From: an uncultured Eubacteriales bacterium
Lineage (GTDB): Bacteria; Acidobacteriota; Aminicenantia; Aminicenantales; UBA8522
Length of the DNA: 64,000 nucleotides
Assembly (NCBI GenBank): GCA_964445305.1
Contig: CAYUKK010000020.1
Span: 6,352 to 70,351, forward strand
Direction of reading: 5' to 3'
The notes below the pieces were generated by a model. It had not been told where the DNA came from, did not search any database, and worked only from the letters and a program-made list of their open reading frames with translations. The position numbers and the translations under genes are program-made. Shown here one piece after another: positions 1,398 through 28,171 of the stretch; positions within the stretch are counted from its first letter, which is position 1; every line of letters starts with the position of its first letter.

Positions 1398-1460
1398 TGG
1401 GGCGTGGTTGGGGGTCAGAAGGCGACAAGACCCGTCGGGTGCTTTGATCGGCAATTTCGG
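1398..1460. repeat. Copy 1 of a conserved roughly 65-nt intergenic element (core gacccgtcgggtgctttgatcggcaatttcgg)
   Basis: The 32 nt at 1429-1460 are identical to 15315-15346. The 5' half is a diverged version of copies 2 and 3. Lies 70 nt upstream of the APC permease start. Confidence 0.6.
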
Positions 1461-1529
1461 TAACCATTTATCTATTGATTAAGGTGAGCTTTTTCTATAT
1501 AGATAGCATCATAGATGGAGTTTTAAGGA

Positions 1530-2900
1530 ATGAACAAGGGAGAGAGCGAGACGAGCGTCTGCTCCGGCCCCGGGAAAAAAGAGGAGCTTCCCCGAGTTCT
1601 CGGCTTCTGGGACATCATCGGCATCATCGTCGGCGGGGTCATCGGCTCGGGCATTTTTATCGTCCCGGCGGCTGTGGCAGCCGGGGTGGGCTCCCCTATC
1701 CTCATGCTGGCCGTCTGGGTCGTCGGTGGCCTGCTCTGCTTTTTTGGCGCCCTCTCCTTTGCCGAGCTCGGCGCCGCCTATCCTCAGGCGGGCGGAATGT
1801 ACATTTACCTGAGAGAGGCATACGGACCGCTCGTGTCCTTCCTTTTTGGCTGGACTCTTTTTCTCGTTATCGATTCTGGAGCCATCGCCACCCTGGCCGT
1901 CGCTTTCTCATCCAAGTATCTCCCTCACTTTGTGGCACTCAGCAAGTTGGAGACGAAGCTCATTGCCGTGGGGTTGATCGCCTTCCTGGCCATCGTCAAC
2001 TACGTCGGGGTTAGATGGGGGGCGGTGCTGCAGAATGTCCTTACCCTGATCAAGTTCGGAGCTATCGTGGCGGTTTGTGCCGTCGTTTTTGCTCTGGCCA
2101 AGGGCAACCCTTCTCATTTTTTCTTTCCCGCGCCCCAGGCTTTCTCCCTTGACCTCATCGCCAGGTTCGGTGTGGCCCTCGTGGCCACCCTTTGGGCCTA
2201 TAAGGGTTGGGAGAGCTCAACCTTCAGTGGCGGCGAAATCCGCAACCCGGAACGAAACCTGCCAGCCGGTCTTCTCGCCGGCACCCTCATCATCATCGGC
2301 ATCTACCTTCTTACCAACATCGCTTATCTCTATGCCTTCCCGGCGAGCGAAATCGCCAAATCTGACCGCATCGCCAGCGACGCCATGAATTTCGCCATCG
2401 GCCCGGCCGGCGCTTCCATCATCGCCCTGGTCATCCTTTTTTCTATTACCGGCGCGACCAATCAGAATTTCCTGTGCAGCCCGCGGGTCTATTTTGCCAT
2501 GGCCCGGGATGGCCTCTTTTTCAAAAACATCGCCCGCATCCATCCCCGGTTCCTCACCCCACACGTGTCCATCTTCGCCCTGGCCGGCTGGAGCGCTGTG
2601 CTCAGCTTGTCGGGAACTTTCGAGCAGCTTTTTACTTATGTTATCTTTGGCCAGTGGATCTTCTTCGGCCTGACTGTGGCTGCGGTGATGATTCTACGCC
2701 GGAAAAGGCCCGAGGTTCGCCGGCCATACAAAACATGGGGATATCCGGTGACACCCATTATTTTCATCCTGAGCGCCCTGTTTGTCTCCGTCAACACGCT
2801 CGTCAATCAATTCTGGAATTCATTCGCCGGCCTGGCCATCATCTTCCTCGGCCTTCCCGCTTATTTTTACTGGCGGAAAAAAGCCATGTCGAGGAGTTAG
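1530..2900 (+). CDS. APC-superfamily amino acid permease
   Basis: 456-aa ORF with 12 predicted TM segments and the GSGIF signature near the N-terminus (IVGGVIGSGIFIVPAAVA), typical of APC amino-acid/polyamine transporters. Confidence 0.75.
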   Translation: MNKGESETSVCSGPGKKEELPRVLGFWDIIGIIVGGVIGSGIFIVPAAVAAGVGSPILMLAVWVVGGLLCFFGALSFAELGAAYPQAGGMYIYLREAYGPLVSFLFGWTLFLVIDSGAIATLAVAFSSKYLPHFVALSKLETKLIAVGLIAFLAIVNYVGVRWGAVLQNVLTLIKFGAIVAVCAVVFALAKGNPSHFFFPAPQAFSLDLIARFGVALVATLWAYKGWESSTFSGGEIRNPERNLPAGLLAGTLIIIGIYLLTNIAYLYAFPASEIAKSDRIASDAMNFAIGPAGASIIALVILFSITGATNQNFLCSPRVYFAMARDGLFFKNIARIHPRFLTPHVSIFALAGWSAVLSLSGTFEQLFTYVIFGQWIFFGLTVAAVMILRRKRPEVRRPYKTWGYPVTPIIFILSALFVSVNTLVNQFWNSFAGLAIIFLGLPAYFYWRKKAMSRS

Positions 2901-3015
2901 GCAAGATGGGTGCACCCGCCTGGCCTTTAAGGGTTTCCCCCTCTCCACCACTCGCCTCTTTTCTCCGAACGTCCCATTGAGTTGCCCCTCGGGTTCAACT
3001 AACTGGGGGACGGGT

Positions 3016-3801
3016 TCAGGCCAGAAGGACAACAAAAAGAAGTATCGAGCCAGCAATAAGTCGGTAAGCTCCGAAAAGATGAAGGGTATGGCGCTGGAGG
3101 TAGCGGATAAACCATCGGACAGCCAGGTAAGCAACGCCAAAAGCAATGACTGCTCCGGCCGCGAGCAAGCCAGCGCTTTGGGCCGAGTGGAGGATGAGTT
3201 CCCTCGTTTTATATAGGTCATAAACACCAGCGGCAAGGAGCGTGGGCACGGCTAAAAGGAAGGAAAATGCGGCAGCGTCGTCCCGCCGAAACCCCAGGGC
3301 CATCATCGCCAGGATGACCGCGCCAGCCCTCGAGACCCCAGGGAGAAAAGCCAGGCACTGGGCGAGACCAATAATTATAGCATTCCCATAGGTTAACTCA
3401 GATATGGGTTTGATCGGCTGAAGCAAGCTCTTCTTGACAAGACCTTCGAAGACAAAAAAGATTGCCCCGACCAGAATAAAGATGACGACCATGGCGAGGT
3501 CCGACTCGAAAAAAACCTGCTTGATGAGGACATAGGAAACTGCACCCAGGAAGGCTGTAGGAAGAAAGGCGAGGAGGGTCTTCACGAGGAGCCCTCTTTC
3601 CTGGAAGACCCTTTTCCAGTAAAGGATGAGAACAGCCAAGATCGCGCCGCTCTGGATAAAAACGTTGAAGAGCTTGACAAAATCGCCATGGGCGATGCCC
3701 AGAGCTTTGGAGGCGAAAATGAGGTGGAATGTGCTCGAGATGGGGAGAAACTCCGTCAGCCCCTCGATGAGGCCAAGAATTAGCGCTTCCCAAAAGTCCA
3801 T
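3016..3801 (-). CDS. uppP: Undecaprenyl-diphosphatase UppP/BacA
   Basis: The N-terminus MDFWEALILGLIEGLTEFLPISSTFHL is the canonical BacA signature. Start moved to the internal ATG at 3801, because the ORF-track start at 3882 adds a non-homologous 27-aa extension. Polytopic membrane protein. Confidence 0.8.
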   Translation of the reverse strand: MDFWEALILGLIEGLTEFLPISSTFHLIFASKALGIAHGDFVKLFNVFIQSGAILAVLILYWKRVFQERGLLVKTLLAFLPTAFLGAVSYVLIKQVFFESDLAMVVIFILVGAIFFVFEGLVKKSLLQPIKPISELTYGNAIIIGLAQCLAFLPGVSRAGAVILAMMALGFRRDDAAAFSFLLAVPTLLAAGVYDLYKTRELILHSAQSAGLLAAGAVIAFGVAYLAVRWFIRYLQRHTLHLFGAYRLIAGSILLFVVLLA

Positions 3802-4107
3802 TTTCTCTTCGCGCTGGCCGGCCCTAAGAAAAAACCTCTTTTTTGGCTGTGTACTATATCCGCCTTGCCTCCCCCTTGTCAAATCCTCGAAAATGGGGAC
3901 AGTTTACATATTACCCTATTTTTCCTTATTTTTCTTTTCCATTGAACAGCTTGACCGTGAAAAAGACGGGCGAGCCATCGTCAAGCGCAGCAGCAAATAG
4001 AAGCTCTCATCCATGTATCTCTTGGGCCATTAGATTGACGATAAACCGGTCAACCGGAAAGGGGAAAAAATTAGGTGAATTGATAAACTGTCCCCAATTA
4101 ACCCCAA

Positions 4108-7100
4108 TTATCTACGGATATCTTTATAAACCTTGTAGACTTCCCGCCACGACTTGATCACCAGGGCAGTCTGGGGCACAGGTTGAGCGAGAACCTGGCT
4201 GGGCGGCTCCGGCCCGCCCTCGCCTGGCTGAGTGAAGCTCTGGACAAAAACTTTTCTTTTCATCACCGCCTGCTGTCCTTCTTCTCCGCTGATGATTTGA
4301 GTCTCGCCAATCGTCACGGCTGACCTGACTTTCTGCTTGGTTACCTTGTATGCTTCTGGAGCCCCCTCGGCGCTCAATAAAGCCGTGCCACCCATCTGGT
4401 TGCCCAAAATATATCGAGCATAGAGCTTTCCACTTCCAGCCAGAGCCTGGCAGGGGTTGAGCGACTCAATGCTCCCTTGAAGGGTGGCGATGTAGACAAT
4501 CCGGTCAGCGATGATATCGTCGGCCCAGACTTTTTCTCCCTGGACAAATTCTCCTTTCTTGCGGTCGATGTTGATCCCCAGCCGAGTAGCCAGGTCATCA
4601 GGGCCGAGATACCACTCCACGGTAGCCGACGCGCCGGTATCTTTAATGGCGACGAAAGAATAGTACTCGGTGTCGGGAGCTTTGTCGTCACCGCCAGTGC
4701 CCACGTAGAGGCTCACCGTTTTATCGACTTTGTTAACGAAGATGGCCGGCCGCGTGACGATGGGGTGCAAATAAGGGTCGCGGTAGATGACGGTGGGCTC
4801 CCACTTTCTCACATCATCGGTTAAATCAATCTTCCAGACCCTCCCGATCAAATCGCCAAAATACACAGCATCAGCAAAGCCGTTGTCGTCTTTGTCCACA
4901 ACCGCGGGCGAACCCGGGAGAGTATTTTGAATGCCGAAGGGGCTTGTGGGCTCCCTTCTTTCCGCAATTTCAAAAGACTTGATGAGGGAGCCGGTTTCAA
5001 CATCAACGACATAGAAATAATGACCGATTTTCTCCCTCGGGTCGTTATCGTTATCATAGCCTGAGCCGAAGAAAACGACCCACTTATTGGGTGATTCAAT
5101 CTTGGCAATGGCCGGCACCGACCATGTTTCGCCCATGTATTCATCCGTGAATTCCCAGAGAGGCTGGGGCGATTCAGGGTCGGTCACATCAAGGGCAAAA
5201 TAGTAACACTTCTGGTTCTTTCCCCATCCGGAACCCTGGCCGCAGACGACAACCGTGTGCCAGCCACCGCCATAATAAACATCTTGGATGGACGGTGTCC
5301 CGTCGACGAAGAATTCGTGATTCAGGTAATAGCCGCAATCCGGGTCAAGGACGCGCATTCTTCTCAGCTTGTAAAGCAGGTTGTTGGGGATAAAAGCCCA
5401 GAGCTCCTCCAGGGTGGCGGCGTCAAAGCAATGGAGCATACCGTCATTAGCACCGACAAGGACAACCTTCCGCCGGTTCTTATAGGCCTCCTTAAACGCC
5501 TCGTAACCCGAGCCCATCAGGGACGGCGTGCCGCGCGGCGGCTCGAGAACCTTGGGCGAAGAGTGGTTGATATCACCCAGCTTCCAGTCCCGGCTGTCGC
5601 CGAGGACGAAACGAATGAGCGGGACGACTTCCGGGCTCCCTATGCCAAGCTGGAGAAAATCATCCAGTGTATCCGCCTCCGAGGGAGCAAAATCAAGCCG
5701 GTCATTCATTATTCCATCCGCCTCTCGGTCATAGGCGGTATAAACGACACGACTCGACCAGTCCCTGGCCCTCAAATTCACTCCTGCATCTTCAATAAAA
5801 GTGGCACCCACATCCAGGATGTCCGCCAGCTGCGAGCCGCGTGTGTAAGCAAGCTCGAGGTCGCTTACATTCCACGACCGGAGATGCCCCTTCCACTTGG
5901 GAAATTCGAACGAAGCCGAATAGAGGACTTCCTCATTGCCTTCCTGGCTCGGGTTGACATCAACGGTCGTAAAAGCATGGGATGTCCGCGAATACTCCCT
6001 CTTGGTGATGTACTTATACTCGATATCCAGAGTCCAGAGCTTGGGTGTTAAGGCCTCATCCGTCGTCGAAAACACAGCTTTCCAGCGAAGGAAATTGCCC
6101 GGACTTTCAAACTCGAATTCGACCCGCGGCGTCACCGGCCCTTCCCATCTCGGGTTGCCGGTGATATCGTTGGAATTGGAAAGATAATAAACGATATTCG
6201 TCCCGGCCGGTTTTGTCTCATCGACATAGATGGTCGCCGCGACGAGGGCATGGTCAGAAGTGATGAAATCGCAAGCCAGGCGGTTCCGGGAATAGGTCGT
6301 GCCTTCTTTTACATAAATGGGATAGGTTTCGTTCATGAAGAAATAACAATTCCGGGAGTCGTTGCCGTCGGCGACGAAGAAATCCAAATCGCCGTCATCG
6401 TCAAAATCGCCAATCGCTCCCGAGTCAAGGTCGCCGGAAGGGGAAACTTGAGCGCCGCTCTCTGGGATGGGCCGACTCGTGAAAATTCCTGTTCCGTCGT
6501 TTTCGTACCAGTAAACATAGCCGCCCGGGGGGTTGGCTGTCCAGCCGTCTGTGGCCAGGACAAAGTCGACATCGCCATCGTTATCGACGTCGCCGGAGCG
6601 GAGGTAGGTACAGGAGCCATGGCTCGCCGGGATGGTAACCGTCTTTCGGTTGTCCTGCCTGAAACTTCCGCCATCATTACGATAAAAGTACAAATCCCTT
6701 GAGTTGGCCGAGCCGACCATGAAATCGACATCGCCATCGCCGTCAAAATCGCCAGCAGCAACGCCGCAAACGCCGTATTGAGCGCTCGCGGGATAAGGGT
6801 TGATGGTTTGGGCAAGACGGGAAAAAACTCCTGAGCCGTTATTGATATAGATAACAACCAAACCCCATCTGTTTCTGGCCCGATAAGTTGGGATTCCCAC
6901 AATCAAGTCTAAGTCTCGGTCACCATCGACGTCGACGCACTCGATGTTGCTCTCCCACCGCCAGTATCTTGAATCCGTCCCGAACTCGCCGTAGCCGTCG
7001 GCGATTAAATCTCCGAGCAGCGTGGGAACAGAGTCAAATTGAGGGATGTCTCCTGGGCTCAAGTTGTTTTCGACATAGAGGTTCTTGAAAATCCAGAGAC

Positions 7101-7629
7101 GGCCCTGCCAGGAAAGGGCGGCAAAGTCGGCATCCCCATCCCCGTCAAAATCGCCGGCGCCAAGAGCCATGATTTCATAGGTTCTAAAGGTCGAAAGATA
7201 GTCGATGTAGTAAGGTCCGTTAAAAGCAAAGCGAAGCGGATCACCGGGGTCTTTTCCGCGGCTGATAAAAATGGCGATATTCGTGTCTGTGGCGTTAGCG
7301 TTGTTGTCGCATGTCCGGCCTCCCTCGACAAGGTCAACCAGTCCATCGCCGTTGAAGTCTGCTGCTGCGCCCGTCATCCGGTAGTTCGTCGTCACTGGAT
7401 AGTTACTCGTCTCCTTCCAGTTGGCTCCCTTGCCCTTGAGGCGGAGAAAGCGAATCGCCCCTTCCGCATCACTTTCGATGCCGTCCATGACGGCGAGGAC
7501 AGAAGGGTCGCCGCGGTAGCCGACAACGCGGTCGCTCTGAGTTTCACAAACCTGGCTATGGGCCCGGATATAAAATAAAGCTGCCAGGCCAAATCCCAAA
7601 ATGATTAGCCCTAAGTAAAGTTTCTTCAT
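4108..7629 (-). CDS. pilY1: PilY1-like type IV pilus tip adhesin/biogenesis protein with N-terminal FG-GAP (integrin-alpha-like) repeats
   Basis: 1173 aa with an N-terminal signal peptide (MKKLYLGLIILGFGLAALFY). Multiple DxDGDGxxD FG-GAP/VCBS repeats in the N-terminal half. The central and C-terminal region carries the PilY1 propeller signature (VVLVGANDGMLHCFDAATLEELWAFIP). It is the last gene of a minor-pilin operon. Confidence 0.75.
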   Translation of the reverse strand: MKKLYLGLIILGFGLAALFYIRAHSQVCETQSDRVVGYRGDPSVLAVMDGIESDAEGAIRFLRLKGKGANWKETSNYPVTTNYRMTGAAADFNGDGLVDLVEGGRTCDNNANATDTNIAIFISRGKDPGDPLRFAFNGPYYIDYLSTFRTYEIMALGAGDFDGDGDADFAALSWQGRLWIFKNLYVENNLSPGDIPQFDSVPTLLGDLIADGYGEFGTDSRYWRWESNIECVDVDGDRDLDLIVGIPTYRARNRWGLVVIYINNGSGVFSRLAQTINPYPASAQYGVCGVAAGDFDGDGDVDFMVGSANSRDLYFYRNDGGSFRQDNRKTVTIPASHGSCTYLRSGDVDNDGDVDFVLATDGWTANPPGGYVYWYENDGTGIFTSRPIPESGAQVSPSGDLDSGAIGDFDDDGDLDFFVADGNDSRNCYFFMNETYPIYVKEGTTYSRNRLACDFITSDHALVAATIYVDETKPAGTNIVYYLSNSNDITGNPRWEGPVTPRVEFEFESPGNFLRWKAVFSTTDEALTPKLWTLDIEYKYITKREYSRTSHAFTTVDVNPSQEGNEEVLYSASFEFPKWKGHLRSWNVSDLELAYTRGSQLADILDVGATFIEDAGVNLRARDWSSRVVYTAYDREADGIMNDRLDFAPSEADTLDDFLQLGIGSPEVVPLIRFVLGDSRDWKLGDINHSSPKVLEPPRGTPSLMGSGYEAFKEAYKNRRKVVLVGANDGMLHCFDAATLEELWAFIPNNLLYKLRRMRVLDPDCGYYLNHEFFVDGTPSIQDVYYGGGWHTVVVCGQGSGWGKNQKCYYFALDVTDPESPQPLWEFTDEYMGETWSVPAIAKIESPNKWVVFFGSGYDNDNDPREKIGHYFYVVDVETGSLIKSFEIAERREPTSPFGIQNTLPGSPAVVDKDDNGFADAVYFGDLIGRVWKIDLTDDVRKWEPTVIYRDPYLHPIVTRPAIFVNKVDKTVSLYVGTGGDDKAPDTEYYSFVAIKDTGASATVEWYLGPDDLATRLGINIDRKKGEFVQGEKVWADDIIADRIVYIATLQGSIESLNPCQALAGSGKLYARYILGNQMGGTALLSAEGAPEAYKVTKQKVRSAVTIGETQIISGEEGQQAVMKRKVFVQSFTQPGEGGPEPPSQVLAQPVPQTALVIKSWREVYKVYKDIRR

Positions 7630-7654
7630 GGCCGCTTCCTTTTCCTTTTTTCGT

Positions 7655-8209
7655 TTATGTCGATTCCTGGATTTCTATCATGACTTCGATTCTGGCATAG
7701 GTATTCCGGCCGGCCCGGCCGATGCAGATAACAAGGCAATCACGGTCGTTGGGAGTGCCTCCGCCGGCCTCATCATTAATCAAGAAGACCGTGTAACTCA
7801 GAGACGGGTCGTTGGGTAGAGGTCGGCTAAGGAAGAGAACGTTGGTCGGGTCCCTCTCGAATTCAGCGATGAGCTCAGCATCGGTGAGAAGGCGGAAATA
7901 ATAGGGGTTGTCTACGGCGGAGGTCGGCGGGACATCCAGTGGCTGCCCGTTATAAGTCGTCCGGTATTGGGAGGAGAAATCCGTTATCGCGCCGCTGACG
8001 ATGTTTTCATTCAGCACCCGCCATGCGGCGTCAAACCCGGCTTCGGCAGCGTTAAAAGCGCGCTCCTGCAGCCGGATATTCCCCGCCACTTGAGGCCCCG
8101 TACCGGTCACGTAAAGCAGGGTGAGACCGACCGCGAAAAGAAAGGCAATGACCATGATGAGGACGATGATTCCCGCCCCTCGCTCTTTGTGGTCTTTTGG
8201 GCTGCCCAT
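7655..8209 (-). CDS. pilX: PilX-like type IV minor pilin
   Basis: Start set at the internal ATG giving MGSPKDHKERGAGIIVLIMVIAFLFAVGLTLLYV, i.e. the PilX N-terminal hydrophobic helix plus a short polar leader. The ORF-track start at 8473 would overlap pilW by 250 bp. Position between pilW and pilY1 is canonical. Confidence 0.6.
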   Translation of the reverse strand: MGSPKDHKERGAGIIVLIMVIAFLFAVGLTLLYVTGTGPQVAGNIRLQERAFNAAEAGFDAAWRVLNENIVSGAITDFSSQYRTTYNGQPLDVPPTSAVDNPYYFRLLTDAELIAEFERDPTNVLFLSRPLPNDPSLSYTVFLINDEAGGGTPNDRDCLVICIGRAGRNTYARIEVMIEIQEST

Positions 8210-8220
8210 TTTTTGCCTCG

Positions 8221-9339
8221 CTAACGGGTCCCCGTGTTGTATAAATTCAGGCTCAAGTTTCGCATCGTCGACGAGGATTCGAGGAGGAACCTCTTGTGCC
8301 TGTCCGGCTGGTTTGAGCCCATCGTGTTCGAGAGAGGTGGCCTCTGGTAAAGATAAAGGTCGGACGGAGGGGTTCCAGAAACGCTGACAAAAGGCTGCGG
8401 CGTCCGGCCGAGGATATAAATCCTGATTTCCCGGATCCGGCTGACTTGGTCTAATGTCCACATATCCGACCAAGGACGAAAGCCATCCAGCCTGCCATCG
8501 TCATCCAAATCGCCATTGTATTCAAACTGAAGGTTCTCGACGTTCTGGGCTAAAGGATAATGGATGGCGTTGAGGGTCATGTAGAGAATCCCTCCCTGGC
8601 CATTTCCGATGTAGCCGCTAACCCCGGCCGTCAGACCTGGATAATTCCCGGTGACATCGAGCCAGAACTCCTTGACATCGATAAACGTCACGAGACCGCC
8701 GTCATAATCGTTCGAGCTGGCACATGTTCCAGACAGCCCCCCGGGTGGGTTAATTCCTGGGGCGAGGCCGGGCGAGAAGTTTAGCCTCTCATTTGTTCCG
8801 CCCGTGCTGTGGGTGACGTGGGTAATCTTGCGTACTTCCCCCGCCCGACAGGCAGAGCTCGGGTTAGGAAGAATCAGGACGACCTTATTGGCATAGTATT
8901 CATCAGGATAGGGATACTGCTCAAGGGAGTAGTCTTCCAAGGACAAGTTGATGCTCGCCCCTTGGTAGCTCTCGATCTCAAGGACGAGGGGATCCTCGAT
9001 ATTGCCCATCATGAGGAGGCGGTCTGGCGTTACCTCCGCACCCTGGTCCTCATTGTCTGTGCCCTCAAAATAATAACCGCAAAATTCAATCGGCAAACCC
9101 ACTCCGGCCATCCGGATATCCCGAGCGATAAAATACATGGCCGAGCGGATATCATGCTGGAGCTCGGCGTACATGCTGTGGTCCACAGAAACCTTGTTGC
9201 TCCTCATGTAAACAGCCAGAGCCCCGACAATGATAACGAGCATAGCTGCGCTGGCCACGAGGAGCTCAATCAGCGTGAAGCCATTGCCCCGGCCTCCATC
9301 TTTTTTGTCCCTGAATATTTTTTGAGCTTTCCTGGTCAT
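8221..9339 (-). CDS. pilW: PilW-like type IV pilus minor pilin
   Basis: The N-terminus has a class III signal with a prepilin cleavage/methylation motif (GNGFTLIELLVASAAMLVIIVG). About 370 aa, typical PilW size. Operon position between pilV and pilX. Confidence 0.7.
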   Translation of the reverse strand: MTRKAQKIFRDKKDGGRGNGFTLIELLVASAAMLVIIVGALAVYMRSNKVSVDHSMYAELQHDIRSAMYFIARDIRMAGVGLPIEFCGYYFEGTDNEDQGAEVTPDRLLMMGNIEDPLVLEIESYQGASINLSLEDYSLEQYPYPDEYYANKVVLILPNPSSACRAGEVRKITHVTHSTGGTNERLNFSPGLAPGINPPGGLSGTCASSNDYDGGLVTFIDVKEFWLDVTGNYPGLTAGVSGYIGNGQGGILYMTLNAIHYPLAQNVENLQFEYNGDLDDDGRLDGFRPWSDMWTLDQVSRIREIRIYILGRTPQPFVSVSGTPPSDLYLYQRPPLSNTMGSNQPDRHKRFLLESSSTMRNLSLNLYNTGTR

Positions 9340-9357
9340 TTTTCCCCGCCGCTCATC

Positions 9358-13406: not shown

Positions 13407-13841
13407 TCAGCTCTTCCGGCATTTTTCGCAAAAACCGAAAACCTGGATCGAAAATTTATCCAGGCGATAACCCTTCTCCTGACCGATTCTTTCGATGGAC
13501 TCGCGGATCTCCGCGTGGGAAAACTCACGGACACGGCCACAGCTCAGGCAAATGAGATGACCGTGGGCCGTCCTTGTCCGCTCGGGCTCGAAGTGACTGT
13601 GATTCTCGCCGAGGTCAATCGAGCTCACCAAGCCGCTTCGGACGAGAAGGTTGAGCGTCCGGTAGATCGTGGCCAGGGAAACCCGGTGGCCCCTGCGGAG
13701 GAGTTTTTCTCGAATTTCATAGGCGTTAGGATGCAAAGAAGAAGAAGAGAAAATTTCCTCAAAGACGAGCTCTCTGGTCCGCGTCAGTCTGAGATCATGA
13801 GCTTTCAAAAAAGCTCGGAATTTCTTAAAACCTCGCTTCAT
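13407..13841 (-). CDS. fur: Fur-family transcriptional regulator (Fur/Zur/PerR)
   Basis: 144 aa with a winged-helix region (VSLATIYRTLNLLVRSGLV), an HxH metal site (HSHF, HGHLIC) and two CxxC pairs (CLSC, CEKC). Its start overlaps the stop of the upstream gene. Confidence 0.8.
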   Translation of the reverse strand: MKRGFKKFRAFLKAHDLRLTRTRELVFEEIFSSSSLHPNAYEIREKLLRRGHRVSLATIYRTLNLLVRSGLVSSIDLGENHSHFEPERTRTAHGHLICLSCGRVREFSHAEIRESIERIGQEKGYRLDKFSIQVFGFCEKCRKS

Positions 13842-15151
13842 TTATTCTCCATGCTTTTCCGATGAGCCAGCTTCTTCTTGAGGCGTTCGAGCCGCCGGGA
13901 GAAATCCTGAGTGTAGCTCTTCGATATCCCCTGAGCGATGATGAACCCCTCCTCGGCCAGCTGGCGAGCCTTTTCGTAATCCTTCTCCCTGTGCTCATAA
14001 TACATCGCTAACTCCCGGAAACAGAAGAGATGTCCCAGCGGGGTGACTTGTTCCCAGAGACGAACGGCTTGCAGCCAATCGCGCTGCCGTTTGAAATAGG
14101 AGGCCAACTTCTTCTTGGCCAGGACGGAGATGTCCTCGGGCAACTTCGTCTCCAGGGCTCGCTGGATGAACCGGGCCGACCGCTCAACATCCCCCCTCCT
14201 CTCCAGCACCCTGGCCGCGCCAAAGAGGTCGAGGCCGTCAATCCGACACTCGCTGACTGCTTCCATCTCTTCATCCAGGAGCGCTCCGCCAACCGTCACA
14301 ATGCCGAGGAGCGACAGGATATCTTCCTGGTTATGGTAAAGCACGGGCTCGATGAGCCCGAAATCGCCCGAGCGGAGGAACTGGAAATAGCGAGCGGGTA
14401 TTTCGGCCGAAGGAATATCCTCGGCCCTGTCTGCGCCCAAAACTTCTTGGGCCAGGAAGTAGAGGCGACAGCTTTCATGCTTGTGTCCCCAGAGGTTGCG
14501 GGCAGCGAAAAGAAAATCGAGGTGGGGGAGCCCACTCAGGGCCAGCTCAGCGCGATGAAGAATGAAGCGCGTCTCCAGAAGCGGCAGGTCAAACGCTTTG
14601 CCGTTAAAAGTGACGACCGACCGGAAATTCATCCGCGATAAAAAGAGCTGGAGTTCATGGATGAGCTGCTCCTCGAAGGCCAGGTCGCCGAGGAAAAACT
14701 GGACAACATGGAATTTATTATCCCCATAGAAACCCAGACCGACGAGGAAGGGAACAACGCCCACGCCACCGGACAACCCCGTCGTCTCGCAATCCAAGAA
14801 GAGGGCGCTCCCGAGGTCAAGATGGCCGAAATTCTCATCCCGGCTGAGGAGAAAGAGAGTTTTTCCGCTTATTTTAAGGCCAGCCTCAATTGGCACTCGG
14901 CCATACCTGGCGCGAACGGGGAAATCGTTTTCAAAAATTTGAAGGGGTAAGCGCCTTTCGGTCTCAGCAGGGAGGGGTGGCTCTTTTTTGGGCCCGCTTT
15001 CCTTGGTCAGGCGAATGAGTCTCTCCAGTTTTTCCCGTGTCGATAGCTCTCTTTGCCGGGAGATTTCCTGCCATGCCCGGTTGATCTTTTCTGACCTCGT
15101 CGCCCTCGGGCCCGATTTTCTGACGAGCTTGAGCTTATCCTCGAAGTCCAT
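13838..15151 (-). CDS. YprB-like RNase H-fold predicted exonuclease with C-terminal TPR repeats
   Basis: A DEDD-like Exo I motif LFLDCETTGL, followed by the RNaseH-like fold region typical of COG3359/YprB proteins. The C-terminal about 120 aa are TPR-like (YFKRQRDWLQAVRLWE, YYEHREKDYEKARQLAEEGF). The 4-nt overlap with the fur start implies co-transcription. Confidence 0.55.
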   Translation of the reverse strand: MDFEDKLKLVRKSGPRATRSEKINRAWQEISRQRELSTREKLERLIRLTKESGPKKEPPLPAETERRLPLQIFENDFPVRARYGRVPIEAGLKISGKTLFLLSRDENFGHLDLGSALFLDCETTGLSGGVGVVPFLVGLGFYGDNKFHVVQFFLGDLAFEEQLIHELQLFLSRMNFRSVVTFNGKAFDLPLLETRFILHRAELALSGLPHLDFLFAARNLWGHKHESCRLYFLAQEVLGADRAEDIPSAEIPARYFQFLRSGDFGLIEPVLYHNQEDILSLLGIVTVGGALLDEEMEAVSECRIDGLDLFGAARVLERRGDVERSARFIQRALETKLPEDISVLAKKKLASYFKRQRDWLQAVRLWEQVTPLGHLFCFRELAMYYEHREKDYEKARQLAEEGFIIAQGISKSYTQDFSRRLERLKKKLAHRKSMENK

Positions 15152-15287
15152 ATCTCCCTCTTTTAAAATCCATGATAGAACAATCCCTCAAACTTTTCAA
15201 AGTCAGACTCAAGAGCAAACCCAAAATTGCGGATAGGGAATGCTCGTTTAGCAAGAGGGCTCAAGATATCAAGAAATTATTATGATA

Positions 15288-15350
15288 GGGGGCGCCGGGG
15301 GTGAACCACGACAGGACCCGTCGGGTGCTTTGATCGGCAATTTCGGGGCC
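15288..15350. repeat. Copy 2 of the conserved roughly 65-nt intergenic element
   Basis: gggggcgccgggggtgaaccacgacaggacccgtcgggtgctttgatcggcaatttcgggg. The 40 nt at 15288-15327 match 25931-25970 with one mismatch. The 32 nt at 15315-15346 are identical to 1429-1460. Lies 67 nt upstream of rhaB. Confidence 0.65.
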
Positions 15351-15416
15351 AACGGAAAGCTTGCAATAAAAAAGAAATGATTATATAAGATAACTTGCTT
15401 TCCAAAAGGGACGAAG

Positions 15417-21646: not shown

Positions 21647-22336
21647 ATGGCTATGATCAGTCCTGAGGTCCAGGAAGCAACCAAGAAAAAACTTTCCTCG
21701 GAAATGGCCGAGCGGGTGACCATCCTCTTTTTTACCCAGGAGCCCAGCCGACTGGTTTTGCCCGACCGTCTCCAGGGGCAAGAATGTCTCTACTGTCAGG
21801 AAACAAGACAGTTGCTCGAGGAAGTGGTCAGCCTGACCGACAAGATTGACCTCAGAACACATGATTTTGTGGCTGAAAAAGCTAAGGCCGATGAACTCGG
21901 CGTGGACAAAATTCCTGCCATCGTCATCAGCCCCGAACAAGGCTACGGAATTCGGTTTTTCGGCATTCCCTCGGGCTATGAGTACGTGAGCCTTCTCGAA
22001 GCCGTCGTCGACGTTTCTCGTCGCCGCACAGCTCTGGCCGAGAAAACAAAGACAGCTCTGGCCGACCTGGCGAACGACGTCCATATCCAGGTCTTTGTCA
22101 CTCCCACCTGTCCCTACTGCACTTTGGCGGTTCGCCTGGCCCACCAGTTTGCCGTAGAAAGTCCGCGCATCCGCGCCGACATGGTCGAAGCGACGGAATT
22201 CCCCCACCTGGCCCAAAAATACCACGTTTTTGGTGTCCCCAAGACCGTTATAAACGAAGCCGTATTCATCGAAGGAGCAGTTCCCGAATCTGTCTTTCTC
22301 GACCATGTCCTCCGAGCGGCTAAGCCGGTTAGGTAG
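21647..22336 (+). CDS. Glutaredoxin-like protein disulfide oxidoreductase (two thioredoxin-fold units, 2x CxxC)
   Basis: Two CxxC active sites (CLYC and CPYC) in a 229-aa protein. The architecture resembles PDO/glutaredoxin-like proteins of thermophiles and anaerobes. Confidence 0.6.
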   Translation: MAMISPEVQEATKKKLSSEMAERVTILFFTQEPSRLVLPDRLQGQECLYCQETRQLLEEVVSLTDKIDLRTHDFVAEKAKADELGVDKIPAIVISPEQGYGIRFFGIPSGYEYVSLLEAVVDVSRRRTALAEKTKTALADLANDVHIQVFVTPTCPYCTLAVRLAHQFAVESPRIRADMVEATEFPHLAQKYHVFGVPKTVINEAVFIEGAVPESVFLDHVLRAAKPVR

Positions 22337-22342
22337 CGTTCC

Positions 22343-24460
22343 ATGGAAGGACTTGAGGCGATTTTCTACCCGCGGTCGATTGCAGTCGTGGGCGCTTCCC
22401 GGCAGGCAGGTAGCGTTGGCCAGTCCGTCCTCGCCAACCTCATCGGCAGTCGATTTCAGGGAGTGGTCTTCCCGGTCAACCCCCATGCCCAGAGCATTCT
22501 TGGCATCAAAGCTTATGCCCGAATATCGGATGTTTCCGATGTGATTGACCTGGCCGTTATTGTCGTTCCCAGCCCCATCGTGCCCGCTGTCCTTGAAGAG
22601 TGCGGTCAGAAGGGAGTCAGGGGAGCGATCATTATCACGGCTGGGTTTAAAGAAATCGGCGGGGCAGGAATTGAACTCGAGGAACGCGTCCAGAAGATCG
22701 CCAACCATCATGGCATTACCCTCGTCGGGCCGAATTGCCTTGGGGTTATCAACACCGACCCTGGCGTGTCCATGAACGCCACTTTTGGCACGCAAATGCC
22801 CAGAGAGGGAAATATCGCCTTCATCTCCCAGAGTGGAGCACTCTGCGTGGCGGTGCTCGATTATGCCAAGGAAGCGAATATCGGCTTTTCCAAGTTCATC
22901 AGCATGGGCAACAAAGCTGGTGTCAACGAAAATGAGCTCCTCCAGTATCTCCAATCCGACCCCAAAACGGGCGTCATCCTCATGTACCTGGAAGACCTTG
23001 TCCGCGGCCGTGATTTTATGGACATCGCCCGCCAAATCACGAGTTCGAAGAAGCGACCCAAGCCTATCCTCGCTCTCAAGGCCGGCCGAACCATGGTGGG
23101 AGCGCGCGCCGCTTCCTCCCACACGGGCTCCCTGGCCGGCTCGGATCGAGTCTATGATGCCATCTTTGAACAGTGCGGTGTCTTGCGCGTCGACACCCTT
23201 GAAGAACTCTTCGATTATGTCAAGGCCTTCTCCAGACAACCGTTGCCCAGGGGCCGGAATGTGGCCATCATTACCAACTCGGGCGGCCCGGGCATTCTGG
23301 CCACGGATTCGTGCATCCAGCATAACCTCAACGTTCCCCGACTCACTCCCGCCACCAAAAAAAGCCTGCGTCAAATTCTGCCGGCCACAGCCAGCCTCCA
23401 CAACCCCATCGACCTCATCGCCGAGGCCCAGGAAGAACAGTACGAGATTTCGCTCCGGGCTGTGCTCCGGGATAGGAACGTCCATTCAGCCATCGTCATC
23501 CTGACGCCAACCGCTTTCACCCGAGTCGAAAGCATCGCCAGGGCCATCGTCAACGTCGCCCGCGCCTCCCAAAAACCTGTCCTGTGCTGTTTTCTCGGAA
23601 TTTACGATGTTTCCAAGGGGGTGGGCATCCTTGAGCAAAACGGCATCCCCAATTTCAGGTTTCCTGAATCGGCGGCGCGTGTCCTGGCCGAAATGGCCAA
23701 CTTCACCGACTGGCTGAATAGGCCGCAGACGGGCATCAAAATTTACCGCGCCGATAAAGAAAAAGCTCGGGCTATCCTCGACGTGGTTTGTCAAGAAGGA
23801 CGTCAGTTTCTCCTCGAGCATGAGGCTTACGAAGTTCTCAAAGCCTACGGCTTCCCGGTCGTCAGGTCAGTCCTCGCCCACACCGAGCGGGAGGCGGTGG
23901 AGGCGGCCGAAAAACTTGGCTTCCCGGTGGTCATGAAAATCGCCTCACCGGATATCGTTCATAAATTTGATTATGGTGGCGTCAAACTGGGTCTCAAGAG
24001 CAAAAGCGATGTGCGGAAAGCCTACGAGGAAATCAAAGAGCGCGTGCTCCAGGCCAAGCCAGAAGCAAGGATTGTCGGTTTACTCATCGAGGAGATGGTC
24101 CAGGGCGGCAAGGAAGTGATTCTGGGCATGAACCGGGATCCTCAATTCGGCCCTATCCTCATGTTCGGCATGGGCGGGATTTATGTCGAGGCGCTCGAAG
24201 ATGTCTCCTTCCGTCTCGCCCCCATCCGGGAGTATTCCGCCCTGGCCATGATCCGGAGGACGAAAACCCACCGCATTCTGGAAGGATTCCGCGGCGGACC
24301 TGTCTACGACGTCGACGCTGTAGCTGACTGTCTCAAGCGGCTCAGCCAGCTGGTCGTCGACTTCGAGGAGATCCAGGAGCTGGACATTAACCCGCTCATC
24401 GTGCTCGAGAAAGGAAGGGGGGCGAGAATTGTCGACGCCCGCATGGTCATCCGAGGGTAG
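22343..24460 (+). CDS. Acetate--CoA ligase (ADP-forming), fused alpha/beta (CoA-binding + succinyl-CoA-synthetase-like + ATP-grasp)
   Basis: N-terminal CoA-binding Rossmann motif (IAVVGASRQAGSVG), the ligase-CoA domain, and a C-terminal ATP-grasp. 705 aa. No GNAT domain, so not a Pat acetyltransferase. Confidence 0.75.
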   Translation: MEGLEAIFYPRSIAVVGASRQAGSVGQSVLANLIGSRFQGVVFPVNPHAQSILGIKAYARISDVSDVIDLAVIVVPSPIVPAVLEECGQKGVRGAIIITAGFKEIGGAGIELEERVQKIANHHGITLVGPNCLGVINTDPGVSMNATFGTQMPREGNIAFISQSGALCVAVLDYAKEANIGFSKFISMGNKAGVNENELLQYLQSDPKTGVILMYLEDLVRGRDFMDIARQITSSKKRPKPILALKAGRTMVGARAASSHTGSLAGSDRVYDAIFEQCGVLRVDTLEELFDYVKAFSRQPLPRGRNVAIITNSGGPGILATDSCIQHNLNVPRLTPATKKSLRQILPATASLHNPIDLIAEAQEEQYEISLRAVLRDRNVHSAIVILTPTAFTRVESIARAIVNVARASQKPVLCCFLGIYDVSKGVGILEQNGIPNFRFPESAARVLAEMANFTDWLNRPQTGIKIYRADKEKARAILDVVCQEGRQFLLEHEAYEVLKAYGFPVVRSVLAHTEREAVEAAEKLGFPVVMKIASPDIVHKFDYGGVKLGLKSKSDVRKAYEEIKERVLQAKPEARIVGLLIEEMVQGGKEVILGMNRDPQFGPILMFGMGGIYVEALEDVSFRLAPIREYSALAMIRRTKTHRILEGFRGGPVYDVDAVADCLKRLSQLVVDFEEIQELDINPLIVLEKGRGARIVDARMVIRG

Positions 24461-24469
24461 TCTGGTCGG

Positions 24470-24480
24470 TCCTGTGCTAT
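24470..24480 (+). promoter_or_regulatory. Candidate -10 box (TATAAT) upstream of the first NPP-family gene
   Basis: gtgcTATAATggtc lies about 15 nt upstream of the ATG at 24495. Sequence-only. Confidence 0.25.
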
Positions 24481-24494
24481 AATGGTCTTTAAAA

Positions 24495-25799
24495 ATGGCG
24501 TGGCTAAAAAAGAAGAGAAAGCCTTCAGTCTGCATCATCGGCCTCGACGGGGTGCCGCACTCCCTCGTCATGGACTTGACCAGCCGGTCGATTATGCCCG
24601 CCCTTGCTCAGCTCATTGACCGAGGCTCTCTCCGTCGATTGAGAGCGAGCCTTCCCGAAATTTCAGCCGTGAGCTGGACGGATTTCATGACCGGCGCCAA
24701 CTCCGGAACGCACGGCATCTTCGGGTTCACCGACTTTAAGCGTGGCTCCTATGAAATCCGTTTCCCCAATTTTTTGGACCTCAAGTGCCCCACTTTCTGG
24801 GACCGCTTGGCTGAGATGGGCAAGAGATGCATCATCATCAACCAGCCTTCCACTTATCCGGCGCGCCGGGTGAACGGCATCCTTATCTCCGGGTTTGTCG
24901 CTCTCGAGCTTGAGAGGGCGGTCTATCCCCCCTCCGAAAAAGCGAACCTCGAGAAGATGGGCTACCAGATTGATATCGACACGGTGAAGGCCAGGCAGGA
25001 TGCCGACTTCCTCTGGCAGGAGCTTGACCGAACCTTCACCAGCCGAGAGCGCGCGTTTCGGCATTTTTGGCAAGGGGATTGGGATTACTTTGAGCTGGTC
25101 ATTACCGGGACAGATAGGCTTCACCATTTCCTCTGGCGGTCGGGTTTGGACCCCCAGAACTCCCACCATCAAAAATTCCTGGATTATTACCGCCGCATCG
25201 ACCGCTTCATTGGCGAAATTGCTTCTGCTTTTGAGAAGCTCACAGGAGGTCTGGAAGGATTCTATATTCTCTCCGACCACGGATTTTGCAGCATCGAAAA
25301 AGAAGTATACCTCAATGCCTGGCTGGAGAGGGAAGGCTACCTTCGATTCCGGGCTAATGAGGCGAAAGGGCTGGAGGAGATAGCCGACGGGAGTGTGGCT
25401 TTCGCCCTCGACCCCAGCCGCATTTACCTTAACGTCGAGGGTCGATTCCCGCGCGGCATCGTGACCCCGGCCGAGCGCGACATTCTAAGAAAAGAGATTG
25501 GCCAGAAGCTGGCCCGGCTCGAGGACGGGGGGAAGAAAGTCATCCGCCATGTCTTTCGGGCCGAGGAGGTCTATTCTGGACCTCTTCTTCCTGAGGGCCC
25601 TGACCTCATTGTGGTCTCAGAACCCGGTTTCGACATCAAGGGGTCAGTGAAAAAAAGGGAGGTTTTCGGTTCAACCGACCTCCAGGGCATGCACACCTGG
25701 GAGGATGCTTTCGTCTGGTCGATCACTCCCCTCGGCCAGAACCTGGCCATTGGCCAGTTGGCTGGGTTTATCCTTGATCACTTCAACGAAAAAAGATAA
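24495..25799 (+). CDS. Alkaline-phosphatase-superfamily type I phosphodiesterase/nucleotide pyrophosphatase family protein (paralog 1)
   Basis: 434 aa. An NPP-core nucleophile region (IIGLDGVPHS...ISAVSWTDFMTGANSGTHGIF) and a distal metal-site motif (LSDHGF). Confidence 0.7.
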   Translation: MAWLKKKRKPSVCIIGLDGVPHSLVMDLTSRSIMPALAQLIDRGSLRRLRASLPEISAVSWTDFMTGANSGTHGIFGFTDFKRGSYEIRFPNFLDLKCPTFWDRLAEMGKRCIIINQPSTYPARRVNGILISGFVALELERAVYPPSEKANLEKMGYQIDIDTVKARQDADFLWQELDRTFTSRERAFRHFWQGDWDYFELVITGTDRLHHFLWRSGLDPQNSHHQKFLDYYRRIDRFIGEIASAFEKLTGGLEGFYILSDHGFCSIEKEVYLNAWLEREGYLRFRANEAKGLEEIADGSVAFALDPSRIYLNVEGRFPRGIVTPAERDILRKEIGQKLARLEDGGKKVIRHVFRAEEVYSGPLLPEGPDLIVVSEPGFDIKGSVKKREVFGSTDLQGMHTWEDAFVWSITPLGQNLAIGQLAGFILDHFNEKR

Positions 25800-25801
25800 G
25801 G

Positions 25802-28171
25802 ATGCTGAAAAAAACAGCCCTTGGCTCGCCAGAGCAACAAAACCGGTTCCCTCTCGGCGGGGCCCCCCGCCGGCCCGAGCGTTTGAGGCTAATGTTCTAC
25901 CTCCTTGATAATCAACAAGATAGTCGGCGAGGGGGCGCCGGGGGTGAACCGCGACAGGACCCGTCGGGTGATTCTATCGGCAATCCTGGGTTCAGGCCAG
26001 CACGGAGGCCGCTCAAAGTCGGAGGGAAGATCTATCGATACGCCGCACCCTTGAAAATTTGCTACTTCCTTTGCTTGGGCGCCCTGACCATCTTGTGTTT
26101 GCCTGTCGAAGCTTACATCGGCCCTGGGGCTGGTTTCGCCTTCCTCTCTTCCTTCCTCGTTTTCTTTCTCACCTTTTTTCTGGCCTTGTTTTCTTTCCTT
26201 TCCTGGCCAATTCGATTCTTTTTCCGTCTGCTCAAGGGAAAAAGAGCTTATCGGAAAGCTCAAGTCGGTCGAATTGTCATCATCGGGCTTGACGGTTTGG
26301 AACCCAAGCTGGTGGAAAAATACATGGCGGAAGGCAAATTGCCGCACCTGGCCAAGCTCCGTAAAGTCGGAAGCTACACAAGACTCCGAACCACGACGCC
26401 GGCCATTTCTCCAGTCGCCTGGTCTTCTTTCATGACCGGAACCGAGCCATCCAAGCACAACATTTTCGACTTTCTGCGTCGAGAACCCAAGACCTACCTG
26501 CCCGAACTCTCCTCAGCTCGCATCGGCCCACCCCGCCGCGTCTTATCCATAGGAAAATACAGACTGCCTCTGGCCAGGCCCGAAATCAGGAATTATCGAA
26601 AAAGCATTCCCTTTTGGAAAACTCTCGGCGAGGCTGGCATTTTCAGCACTGTGCTGCGGGTTCCCATCACCTTTCCGCCCGAAAAATTTGCTGGCCATCT
26701 CCTCGCCGGCATGTGCACACCCGACCTCAAAGGGAGCCAGGGGACGTTCGCTTTTTACACCACCAACAAGAGTAAAGTCCACCGAAAAGAGGGCGGCATA
26801 GTCATTCCCGTCGACGTTGTGGACGGTCGCATCCAGACCTACGTTTCTGGGCCTGAGAATTCGCTCTTGAAAAAACCAGAGGAAATCCGCCTTCCGCTGA
26901 TTATCCGCATCGACGCTGGCCGAGGCGAAGCGGTGCTCGCTGTTTCTGGTGAGCGGTTCAGGCTCAAGCCACGAGTTTTTTCTCCCTGGATCAGGCTCGT
27001 TTTCCGAGCCGGGCTGGGGATTAAAATCCGCGCCATTGCCAAGTTTTATGTTTCCTCGCTCGAGCCGGACTTCGAGATGTACGTTACCCCGCTCAACATC
27101 GACCCAGAAAAACCGGCTCTCCCCATTGCCCATCCTTTCCTCTATTCTGTCTACTTGAGCAAGCTCCTGGGAAGCTTCATCACGCTGGGAGAAGCCAACG
27201 ACACTTGGGCGTTGAATGAAGGAGTGTTGAAGGAAGACGCCTTCCTCGAACTCACCTACTCCAACCATGCCGAATGGGAAGCGATGCTTTTCAACGCCAT
27301 CGACAAGACGAGAAAAGGAGTGGTCGTTTGTGTCTTTGAAACAACGGACAGCATCCAGCACATGTTCTGGCGCTATCTTGATTCCCATCATCCTGCCCTG
27401 AAAACCACGACCCCGACGATGAACGCTCGCGTCATCGAGGAGCTTTACCAGCGCATGGACGACCTCGTGGGAAGAGTGAGCCAAAAAGCGGGTCCGCGGA
27501 GCTTGCTCTTGGTCATGTCCGACCATGGTTTCGCCTCCTTCCGCCGCGGCGTCAACCTGAATTCATGGCTTTACACTAACGGATACCTCTCTCTCAAGGA
27601 TGGGAAAGAAGAAAGCGAGGAATGGCACAAGGACGTCGATTGGGAAAGGACAAGAGCTTATGCCCTTGGTCTGGGCGGCCTCTACATCAACCAGAAGGGC
27701 CGGGAAGCCCAAGGCATCGTTTCACCTGGCCAGGAAACAGAGGTTCTTAAAGCAGAGCTCATCAAAAAGTTGCGCCTTCTCCGGGACGAGGAAAAAGGAG
27801 AAGTGGCTATCACGGAAGTTTACGATAGCGAGCGCCTTTATGCCGGCCCATACAAAGAGAATGCCCCCGACCTCATCATCGGTTACAATCAGGGTTACCG
27901 GGCGTCCTGGGATGGAGTGACGGGAAAAGTCTCCCGGCGTGTTTTTGAGGATAACCTCAAAGCCTGGAGTGGAGACCATTGCATCGACCCGACGCATGTC
28001 CCCGGCGTGCTCTTCTCCAGCTGGAAGCTGAGCGCCACATCACCCTCGATCATGGATATCGCCCCGACCGTGTTGAGCCTTTTTGGCCTGCCCATCCCTG
28101 CTCACATGGACGGCAAGCCCCTTTTCGAAAGAGGGTCGAGCTTTTCGAAGAAGAAAGGAAAAGAAAAATGA
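25802..28171 (+). CDS. NPP/alkaline-phosphatase-family protein (paralog 2) with an N-terminal membrane anchor; start codon uncertain
   Basis: Catalytic core VIIGLDGLEP...TTPAISPVAWSSFMTGTEPSKHNIF, distal motifs MSDHGF and WSGDHC, and N-terminal hydrophobic helices. The maximal ORF begins at 25802, but copy 3 of the conserved element sits at 25931-25990. The real start may therefore be downstream, for example TTG 26051 or the earlier ATG 25892. The stop overlaps the start of paralog 3. Confidence 0.6.
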   Translation: MLKKTALGSPEQQNRFPLGGAPRRPERLRLMFYLLDNQQDSRRGGAGGEPRQDPSGDSIGNPGFRPARRPLKVGGKIYRYAAPLKICYFLCLGALTILCLPVEAYIGPGAGFAFLSSFLVFFLTFFLALFSFLSWPIRFFFRLLKGKRAYRKAQVGRIVIIGLDGLEPKLVEKYMAEGKLPHLAKLRKVGSYTRLRTTTPAISPVAWSSFMTGTEPSKHNIFDFLRREPKTYLPELSSARIGPPRRVLSIGKYRLPLARPEIRNYRKSIPFWKTLGEAGIFSTVLRVPITFPPEKFAGHLLAGMCTPDLKGSQGTFAFYTTNKSKVHRKEGGIVIPVDVVDGRIQTYVSGPENSLLKKPEEIRLPLIIRIDAGRGEAVLAVSGERFRLKPRVFSPWIRLVFRAGLGIKIRAIAKFYVSSLEPDFEMYVTPLNIDPEKPALPIAHPFLYSVYLSKLLGSFITLGEANDTWALNEGVLKEDAFLELTYSNHAEWEAMLFNAIDKTRKGVVVCVFETTDSIQHMFWRYLDSHHPALKTTTPTMNARVIEELYQRMDDLVGRVSQKAGPRSLLLVMSDHGFASFRRGVNLNSWLYTNGYLSLKDGKEESEEWHKDVDWERTRAYALGLGGLYINQKGREAQGIVSPGQETEVLKAELIKKLRLLRDEEKGEVAITEVYDSERLYAGPYKENAPDLIIGYNQGYRASWDGVTGKVSRRVFEDNLKAWSGDHCIDPTHVPGVLFSSWKLSATSPSIMDIAPTVLSLFGLPIPAHMDGKPLFERGSSFSKKKGKEK
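25931..25990. repeat. Copy 3 of the conserved roughly 65-nt element
   Basis: gggggcgccgggggtgaaccgcgacaggacccgtcgggtgattctatcggcaatcctggg. Lies inside the 5' part of the maximal ORF of paralog 2. Confidence 0.6.

Follow-up and report, generated by a model that had tools for sequence, protein, structure and literature searches.

Remnants of a miniature inverted-repeat element in an Aminicenantes contig and their fixed spacing from native promoters

Three repeats upstream of unrelated genes

We analysed a stretch of 64 000 nt (hereafter the window) from an uncultured bacterium of the Aminicenantales lineage UBA8522 (GenBank assembly GCA_964445305.1, contig CAYUKK010000020.1, forward-strand positions 6352–70 351), in which an earlier note had described three same-strand copies of a conserved element of ∼65 nt, at positions 1398–1460, 15288–15350 and 25931–25990. 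The 13-mer GACCCGTCGGGTG occurs three times without mismatch in the 64 kb, at 1429, 15315 and 25958 and exclusively on the plus strand, and the top family returned by a repeat finder for the window has the same three members; number, strand and position of the copies are thus as described. The 32-mer common to copies 1 and 2, as well as the 40-mer shared with a single mismatch by copies 2 and 3, also read as they had been given. The genes 3′ of the copies are indeed unrelated, specifying an amino-acid permease (copy 1), an FGGY kinase together with RhaA (copy 2) and a Phosphodiest/NPP protein (copy 3), with 69, 70 and ∼61 nt, respectively, between the end of the element and the start codon. 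An ORF at 25802–28171 formally crosses copy 3, but this is an artefact of an early ATG, as the conserved hydrophobic N-terminus starts at a TTG codon at 26051. As set out below, the three copies are remnants of a MITE (miniature inverted-repeat transposable element), i.e. a non-autonomous transposon with terminal inverted repeats (TIRs), which constitutes a new family of Aminicenantes.

The unit of ∼65 nt first described turned out to be only the right arm of this larger element, as matches to a profile of the full family extend further. Copy 1 (1384–1461, plus strand) matches profile positions 157–229 at 1384–1460 (nhmmer, E = 6.7 × 10−9), with a core at 1429–1451; it is a decayed short element that, read by eye, also keeps a fused left arm in the manner of a 148-nt class, and a possible, very degenerate left part would reach back to ∼1333. 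Copy 2 (15220–15347, plus strand) is a 128-nt element that has lost its middle, with matches to profile positions 1–68 (15220–15287) and 169–229 (15286–15346). Both TIRs are in place (left 15220–15237, right 15330–15347), the left one, CCCAAAATTGCGGATAGG, differing from the consensus by one mismatch, and immediately outside them a target-site duplication can be read from the sequence, with GCAAA at 15215–15219 on the left and GCCAA at 15348–15352 on the right (a match at four of five positions). Moreover, copies on unrelated metagenome contigs (L074 and L106; L numbers denote loci) match copy 2 with 100 % identity over its right arm, as expected of a recently active family. Copy 3 (25859–25990, plus strand) has no left end; it matches profile positions 99–229 at 25859–25989 (E = 1.4 × 10−38; envelope from 25839) and has dozens of counterparts elsewhere with 80–92 % identity. 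The conservation of a different half in each copy had been taken as a sign of purifying selection. Three independent insertions of slightly different subfamilies, which then underwent differing deletions and decay, fit the retained parts better than does selection on two half-sites.

A dispersed family with inverted termini and target-site duplications

With GACCCGTCGGGTGNTTNNATCGG as the scan word, we searched one genome per species and found 18 loci, all of which were in metagenome-assembled genomes (MAGs) of Aminicenantes or in MAGs labelled Eubacteriales or Clostridiales. Among metagenome contigs at least 115 loci carried this word, and core matches overall came to at least 138. One MAG held at least seven copies, whilst a single metagenome contributed dozens of element-bearing contigs. 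A repeat of this kind would be expected to break assemblies, and many of the matches indeed lay <100 nt from the end of a contig. The copies in Clostridiales/Eubacteriales-labelled MAGs (L003, L004, L006 and L007, all JARYMI01; L001, L008, L010–L012 and L016, all CAZ...) are near-identical; this would mean either mistaken labels or a passage of the element between phyla.

In the aligned copies, similarity runs ∼170 nt to the left of the segment first described and has a sharp limit on either side. At the left end the sequence is CCCAAAWTTGCCGATAGG, and its reverse complement (...CCTATCGGCAAWTTTGGG) forms the right end, which gives TIRs of 18 nt with zero to three mismatches. The two ends change together (AAATTT versus AAAATT; pair 7:226). 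The canonical length is 228–231 nt, found in 28 distinct copies (alignment A3), and further size classes exist at 128–148, 192, 262, 317–340 and 430–444 nt, the short ones being internal deletions. Internally, the left arm (CACCCGAKGGGTGGCGYGGTTCGGGGGCC...) pairs as an inverted repeat with the segment first described (...GGCGCCGGGGGTGAACCRCGACAGGACCCGTCGGGTG), and at its full 230 nt the element folds into one long hairpin (z = −5.3 versus shuffles). No ORF, transposase-like or otherwise, was detected inside the element copies.

Two structural details of the family were also observed. Copies of the 326-nt class (L001:4213–4538, L005:827–1151 and L015:4729–5054) carry an extra hairpin module of 96 nt at the tip of the left arm, which contains two nested inverted repeats (CGAGACGCT...AGCGTCTCG and CCCCTCTTA...TAAGAGGGG); this module and the 430–444-nt classes may represent nested small elements or added hairpins. 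Additionally, the element contains an internal promoter-like pair directed towards its right end, in which a conserved TTGATG and a conserved GAWNAT (in most cases GATAAT) are separated by a variable 18-nt spacer. The pair occupies columns 123–152 of alignment A3 and positions 25886–25917 in copy 3, and is absent from the short deletion variants.

Directly outside the terminal CCC...GGG, 16 of the 55 distinct full copies have an exact target-site duplication of 5 bp, with many others matching at four of the five positions. The chance expectation of an exact duplication is 1/1024 per copy, or ∼0.05 copies in the whole set (55/1024). Examples are TTCCT (L003), CCGTT (L014), ATTCT (L068), CTGAT (L087) and AATAAT (L064), and the duplicated words have no sequence in common. 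TIRs or target-site duplications had been named beforehand as the sign of a MITE, an outcome that would refute a regulatory element, and with both of them found, a miniature repeat family was the right choice among the options that the earlier note had offered. Following the working features of prokaryotic MITEs listed in PMC10969869, the identity of the family rests on its TIRs, 5-bp duplications, lack of an ORF, many dispersed copies, deletion derivatives and presence or absence at orthologous sites. Palindromes of the repetitive extragenic palindrome (REP) type and their mosaics (bacterial interspersed mosaic elements, BIMEs) were considered and rejected: these measure 20–40 nt, have neither TIRs nor duplications and typically occur between convergent genes or at 3′ ends, whereas the present unit is 230 nt long, has TIRs and 5-bp duplications, and is situated upstream of promoters.

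Presence or absence at orthologous sites was seen in three cases. Contig L015 is syntenic with window positions 1015–8800 at 72–80 % identity, and the permease promoter (TTGATT-N17-TATAxA) is kept in both, with the element (copy 1) present in the window only. The reverse situation is found at 3853–3882 (minus strand), where the window has the promoter TTGACA-N18-TATAGT of a minus-strand gene starting at ∼3801 and no element; in L015 a 326-nt MITE lies 14 nt upstream of the −35 box of the orthologous promoter (TTGACA-N18-TATAGT). In the third case, the site before orthologous dehydrogenase genes is filled in L006 and empty in L055. A separate difference was observed on contig L112, which is collinear with the window at 58878–60345 and 63478–63972. 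Within the compared span (58878–63972) it has ∼0.6 kb, including a 262-nt element copy, where the window has ∼3.1 kb; this is a rearrangement or a gene gain or loss beside an element copy.

Promoters at a fixed distance from the element ends

The flanks of the family were read outward from the element over 50 positions, with a promoter called at ≥ 9 of 12 matches to TTGACA/TATAAT and a spacer of 16–18 nt. Of the distinct flanks, 63 of the 126 on the right and 23 of the 53 on the left had an outward-facing sigma-70-type promoter, compared with inward-facing ones in six and two, respectively. Among the 84 promoter-bearing flanks (of 179), the −35 box starts 13 nt from the element in 34 and 14 nt from it in 22; these 56 flanks compare with approximately three that would be expected at 13–14 nt if placement over the 50 positions were uniform. 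Hexamers resembling TTGACA and TAnnnT peak sharply at 13–14 and 36–38 nt from the element end, respectively, whilst a position-frequency table of the flanks revealed no further signal of any strength, the duplicated 5-mer included. Furthermore, the distance from element to −35 box is the same for spacers of 17 and 18 nt, and the spacing is therefore set from the −35 box and not from the −10 box.

A same-strand ORF of ≥ 100 aa lies downstream of 55 out of 59 such promoters, the median predicted leader being ∼27 nt, and three of the promoters are kept in orthologs without the element. On the strength of these downstream ORFs and of this conservation, the flank promoters are, judged from sequence, real and native ones. 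The idea that they form part of a longer element was rejected, as the duplications adjoin the CCC/GGG termini, copies from the same genome lose similarity at exactly this point, and element-free orthologs retain the promoter. When the 51 full copies were sorted by promoter side, 16 had a promoter on the right only, 12 on the left only, 10 on both sides and 13 on neither. The initial impression that the element always stands in the same orientation 5′ of genes consequently does not extend to the family, in which promoters adjoin the right end, the left end or both. Its association with the 5′ regions of genes is correct, and in fact stronger than could be seen from the three copies. Presumably young insertions already show the pattern: where the 5-bp duplication is intact (16 copies), a promoter lies 11–15 nt from one end in 13.

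The same arrangement is found in the window itself. The permease promoter (1475–1503, plus strand) lies 13 nt past copy 1, with its −35 TTGATT at 1475–1480, a 17-nt spacer and its −10 TATAGA at 1498–1503. Past copy 2 lies the promoter of the FGGY-kinase/rhaA operon (15361–15389, plus strand; score 9), whose −35 TTGCAA (15361–15366) begins at a distance of 13 nt from the element's right end and is separated by 17 nt from the −10 TATAAG (15384–15389). On the other side of copy 2, 19 nt from its left end, is the promoter of a gene for an RNase_H-fold protein (13838–15151, minus strand), with a −35 TTGAAA at 15195–15200 and a −10 TATCAT at 15172–15177 (15172–15200, minus strand; score 10), so that copy 2 sits between two divergent promoters. 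No promoter-like site was seen in the right flank of copy 3. A fourth stretch, at 50308–50415 (no strand assigned), starts with CCCCAAAATTGCT and is either a strongly decayed copy or a member of a related, distant subfamily, its nhmmer match being weak (E = 5.7). It ends 12 nt before a −35 TTTACA (50428–50433) that is followed by a −10 TAGACT (50451–50456), and it shares this promoter site with a well-preserved copy on the orthologous contig L111. Either the two go back to an old, shared insertion, with decay in only one of the lineages, or the same promoter was hit twice independently.

RNA-based explanations

The leading idea of the earlier note was a cis-regulatory RNA leader, i.e. a riboswitch-like structure in the 5′ untranslated region. 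The three window copies do lie on the strand of the downstream gene, 60–70 nt away from it, and local palindromes are present in their sequence. For an element in the leader, however, the promoter would need to be on its far side, and the most decisive point is that a good sigma-70-type promoter separates element and gene in copies 1 and 2, with the −35 box 13–14 nt past the element end there, as in 56 flanks elsewhere. Moreover, genes and promoters adjoin either end in the family as a whole, and the TIRs and target-site duplications attest to mobility. We therefore regard an RNA leader as highly improbable. A new regulator-binding site, which had also been proposed, does not describe the family either, as it is a MITE.

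Structural analyses gave a similar picture. The palindromes behind the hairpins suggested for the ∼65-nt segment exist, but they are not special energetically, since 81-nt windows of the three copies on both strands folded no better than shuffles (z = −0.19, −0.13 and +0.34). RNAalifold analysis of 28 copies returned a covariation term of −0.35 kcal mol−1, with double changes in three of 51 pairs; one of these three pairs belongs to the TIR, the two ends of the element having to suit a single transposase. In control counts, neither covarying pairs nor pair types were above shuffles, and the covariation that had been sought in support of the hairpins is thus not present to any meaningful degree. 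The statement that the element resembles no named riboswitch class is borne out by Rfam, which gave no match to the element, none to the whole window at the gathering score, and none to three element-bearing loci at E ≤ 1. A tRNA/tmRNA scan of the window was likewise negative. Three candidates picked out by eye, a tRNA-like T-arm, a sigma-54 −24/−12 site and an extracytoplasmic function (ECF) sigma-factor site of the form GGAAC-N16-CGTC, were discarded as their spacing fails when all copies are compared.

A different RNA-based explanation takes the element for a mobile gene of a small RNA, in which the internal promoter drives a structured right-arm RNA as the functional product. In its favour are the conserved internal −35/−10-like pair with its variable spacer, and the right arm being what each of the three window copies has kept. 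Additionally, one-sided changes in stems lead mostly to G.U on the plus strand (21 pairs, versus nine with A.C), although this excess is partly built in, given that the structure was predicted on the plus strand and that the sequences are non-independent. The long internal stem (A3 columns 77–117 with 174–212) displays this G.U bias, and pair 93:193 occurs as C-G, U-G and U-A, with no C-A intermediate. Conversely, no terminator follows the right end, variants of 128–148 nt persist despite having deleted the internal promoter, and neither pairs nor pair types covary beyond controls. On balance a small-RNA gene appears very improbable, albeit slightly less so than an RNA leader.

Directed integration or selection after insertion

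Taken together, the observations make it very probable that the copies are remnants of a MITE whose integration was directed to a position 13–14 bp upstream of sigma-70-type −35 boxes, in either orientation. The placement at about −48 of native promoters is itself observed, whilst promoter targeting is what we infer from the flanks. The element must be moved in trans by a transposase whose cut in the target is staggered by 5 bp; under this proposal, integration would be placed 13–14 bp before the −35 hexamer, or about −48 relative to the start site, in both orientations. Most probably, the transpososome would read the −35 box at a fixed distance from the site of strand transfer, or else dock on promoter-bound RNA polymerase or on bent upstream DNA, and its symmetry would account for the lack of an orientation preference. 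After insertion, decay by deletion and substitution would leave each window copy with a different part. The position of the copies 60–70 nt upstream of unrelated genes would then be a consequence of promoter-directed integration. Whether the transposase chooses its target by the promoter itself, by readout of the −35 or by docking on polymerase or bent DNA, as a ‘promoter hunter’, is a narrower proposition that we consider evenly balanced. Targeting of the kind used by Tn7 or by CRISPR-associated transposons (CASTs) was ruled out by the insertion in both orientations.

The foremost alternative accepts the element as a MITE and attributes the spacing of 13–14 nt to selection, the element end acting as a promoter-upstream module or as a site for a bound protein, with copies being exapted. 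In this case, the AAATTT tract would come to lie at approximately −57 to −52, the region occupied by the distal subsite in the UP-element consensus, and only insertions at that distance would be kept. As the same TIR is present at both ends, the missing orientation bias fits such a scenario, as does the high conservation of arms and TIRs across species; in addition, the conserved internal TTGATG-N18-GATAAT with its variable spacer resembles an outward-facing promoter. Set against this are the 13 of 16 copies with intact duplications that show the spacing despite being presumably young, the conservation of the promoters, which are presumably functional, in orthologs without the element, and the heavy decay of the copy at 50308–50415 and of the left parts of copies 1 and 3, which is at odds with purifying selection. 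We consider selection as the source of the spacing unlikely, though clearly less so than either of the RNA-based explanations.

A number of observations weigh against directed integration of a MITE as proposed above. Of the 51 full copies, the 13 with no recognizable promoter on either side do not conform, and copy 3 of the window is among such copies. BLAST searches with reconstructed junctions for a clean, near-identical empty site gave only one, diverged case (L006/L055); the genomes compared for presence or absence are ∼20 % diverged, and their intergenic flanks cannot be aligned base for base. A search of ∼1 Mb of fetched loci and of viral contigs revealed no autonomous partner bounded by these ends. 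TIR pairs 0.5–6 kb apart, taken over all loci, enclose no transposase-like ORF but ordinary genes, for example those for radical-SAM-like proteins, glycosyltransferases, ABC ATPases and permeases, and scanning viral contigs with a 17-mer of the TIR gave 11 chance matches, none of them with an element. Furthermore, the arms are far better conserved than positions 20–75, a difference not obviously to be expected of a purely selfish element; nor does a purely selfish DNA element predict the G.U bias, a weak signal that possibly stems from the prediction itself. Finally, selection after insertion could contribute to the fixed spacing, although the decay of old copies and the pattern in young ones make targeting the more probable main cause.

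Other repeats in the window

Three further sets of repeats were observed in the window. Several direct repeats of 40–52 nt (AAATCGACATCGCCATCGCCGTCAAAATCGCC-like), 159–402 nt apart, are located at 6361–7163 within an ORF of 1173 aa (4108–7629, minus strand), where they probably specify repeated modules rich in Asp and Gly, as part of a large protein that is secreted or located at the surface. Blocks with 65–76 % nucleotide identity connect 26461–27393 and 28479–29414 at a constant offset of 2021 nt; the NPP gene that follows copy 3 and the next gene are tandem paralogs, and with the NPP gene at 24495–25799 there are three in a row. Lastly, a repeat termed D16 (37102 and 47578) was dismissed as chance, one copy being intergenic and the other inside a gene.

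Significance and comparison with known systems

As first described, the finding is now explained and ordinary, as it consists of transposon remnants and entails no new regulatory RNA. The promoter-proximal placement, by contrast, is unusual and statistically well supported. Bacterial elements with known targeting use attachment sites, REP sequences, res or dif sites, or short consensus words, and to our knowledge promoter-hunting integration is known in kind only from eukaryotic retroelements. If the proposal is true, a transposon that measures 13–14 bp from the −35 box would constitute a new targeting logic, one that is safe for the host in leaving genes and core promoters undisrupted whilst being ideally placed to rewire upstream regulation. 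Each copy would, moreover, mark a real promoter, and the family would thus provide a ready-made promoter map for Aminicenantes, a group for which we know of no cultured representative and no promoter data. The transposase, once identified, could also yield a tool for promoter-directed integration.

Among the eukaryotic retroelements, Ty3 integrates at RNA polymerase III start sites and Tf1 at RNA polymerase II promoters, with tethering by polymerase factors having been demonstrated experimentally. The family described here resembles them in its fixed position relative to a landmark of the transcription machinery; it differs in that Ty3 and Tf1 are eukaryotic long terminal repeat retroelements, whereas tethering here would be deduced only from the flanks. 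With the Tn3-derived inverted-repeat miniature elements (TIMEs) it has in common its miniature size of a few hundred bp and the 5-bp duplication. Ends of the Tn3 family, however, are ∼38 bp long and begin with GGGG, and membership was rejected for the present elements, the ends of which are ∼18 bp and begin with CCCAAA. In the open-access subset of the literature, we found no description of this family or of insertion anchored to the −35 box by a bacterial insertion sequence (IS) or MITE.

The Correia elements of Neisseria and other bacterial MITEs (PMC10969869) are similar in many respects, being <500 bp, non-coding, multi-copy and intergenic, with TIRs, flanking direct repeats in young copies, a strong potential to form stem-loops and a frequent location immediately upstream of genes. 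Correia elements, however, duplicate TA and bring their own promoters, whilst the present family duplicates 5 bp of any sequence, has flank promoters at 13–14 nt, and resides in uncultured Aminicenantes instead of Neisseria. A fixed promoter spacing of 13–14 nt is not described for prokaryotic MITEs in that 2024 review. The ‘putative mobile promoters’ (PMC3488235) are likewise near-identical upstream segments before non-homologous genes; here, by contrast, the repeat is not the promoter, which is native, locus-specific and present in element-free orthologs. For insertion at a fixed distance, the best analogy would appear to be the ISAjo2/IS1202 group, which, according to PMC10132070, inserts at dif-like sites at a distance of 5 bp from the XerC site. 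Elements of that group are of the DDE type and, like ours, have TIRs, a fixed short distance from a protein-binding site and no target consensus within the duplication, but they are autonomous and 1.5 kb long, and they insert beside Xer sites in one orientation only. The family in Aminicenantes, in comparison, is non-autonomous, inserts in both orientations and has the promoter −35 box as its landmark.

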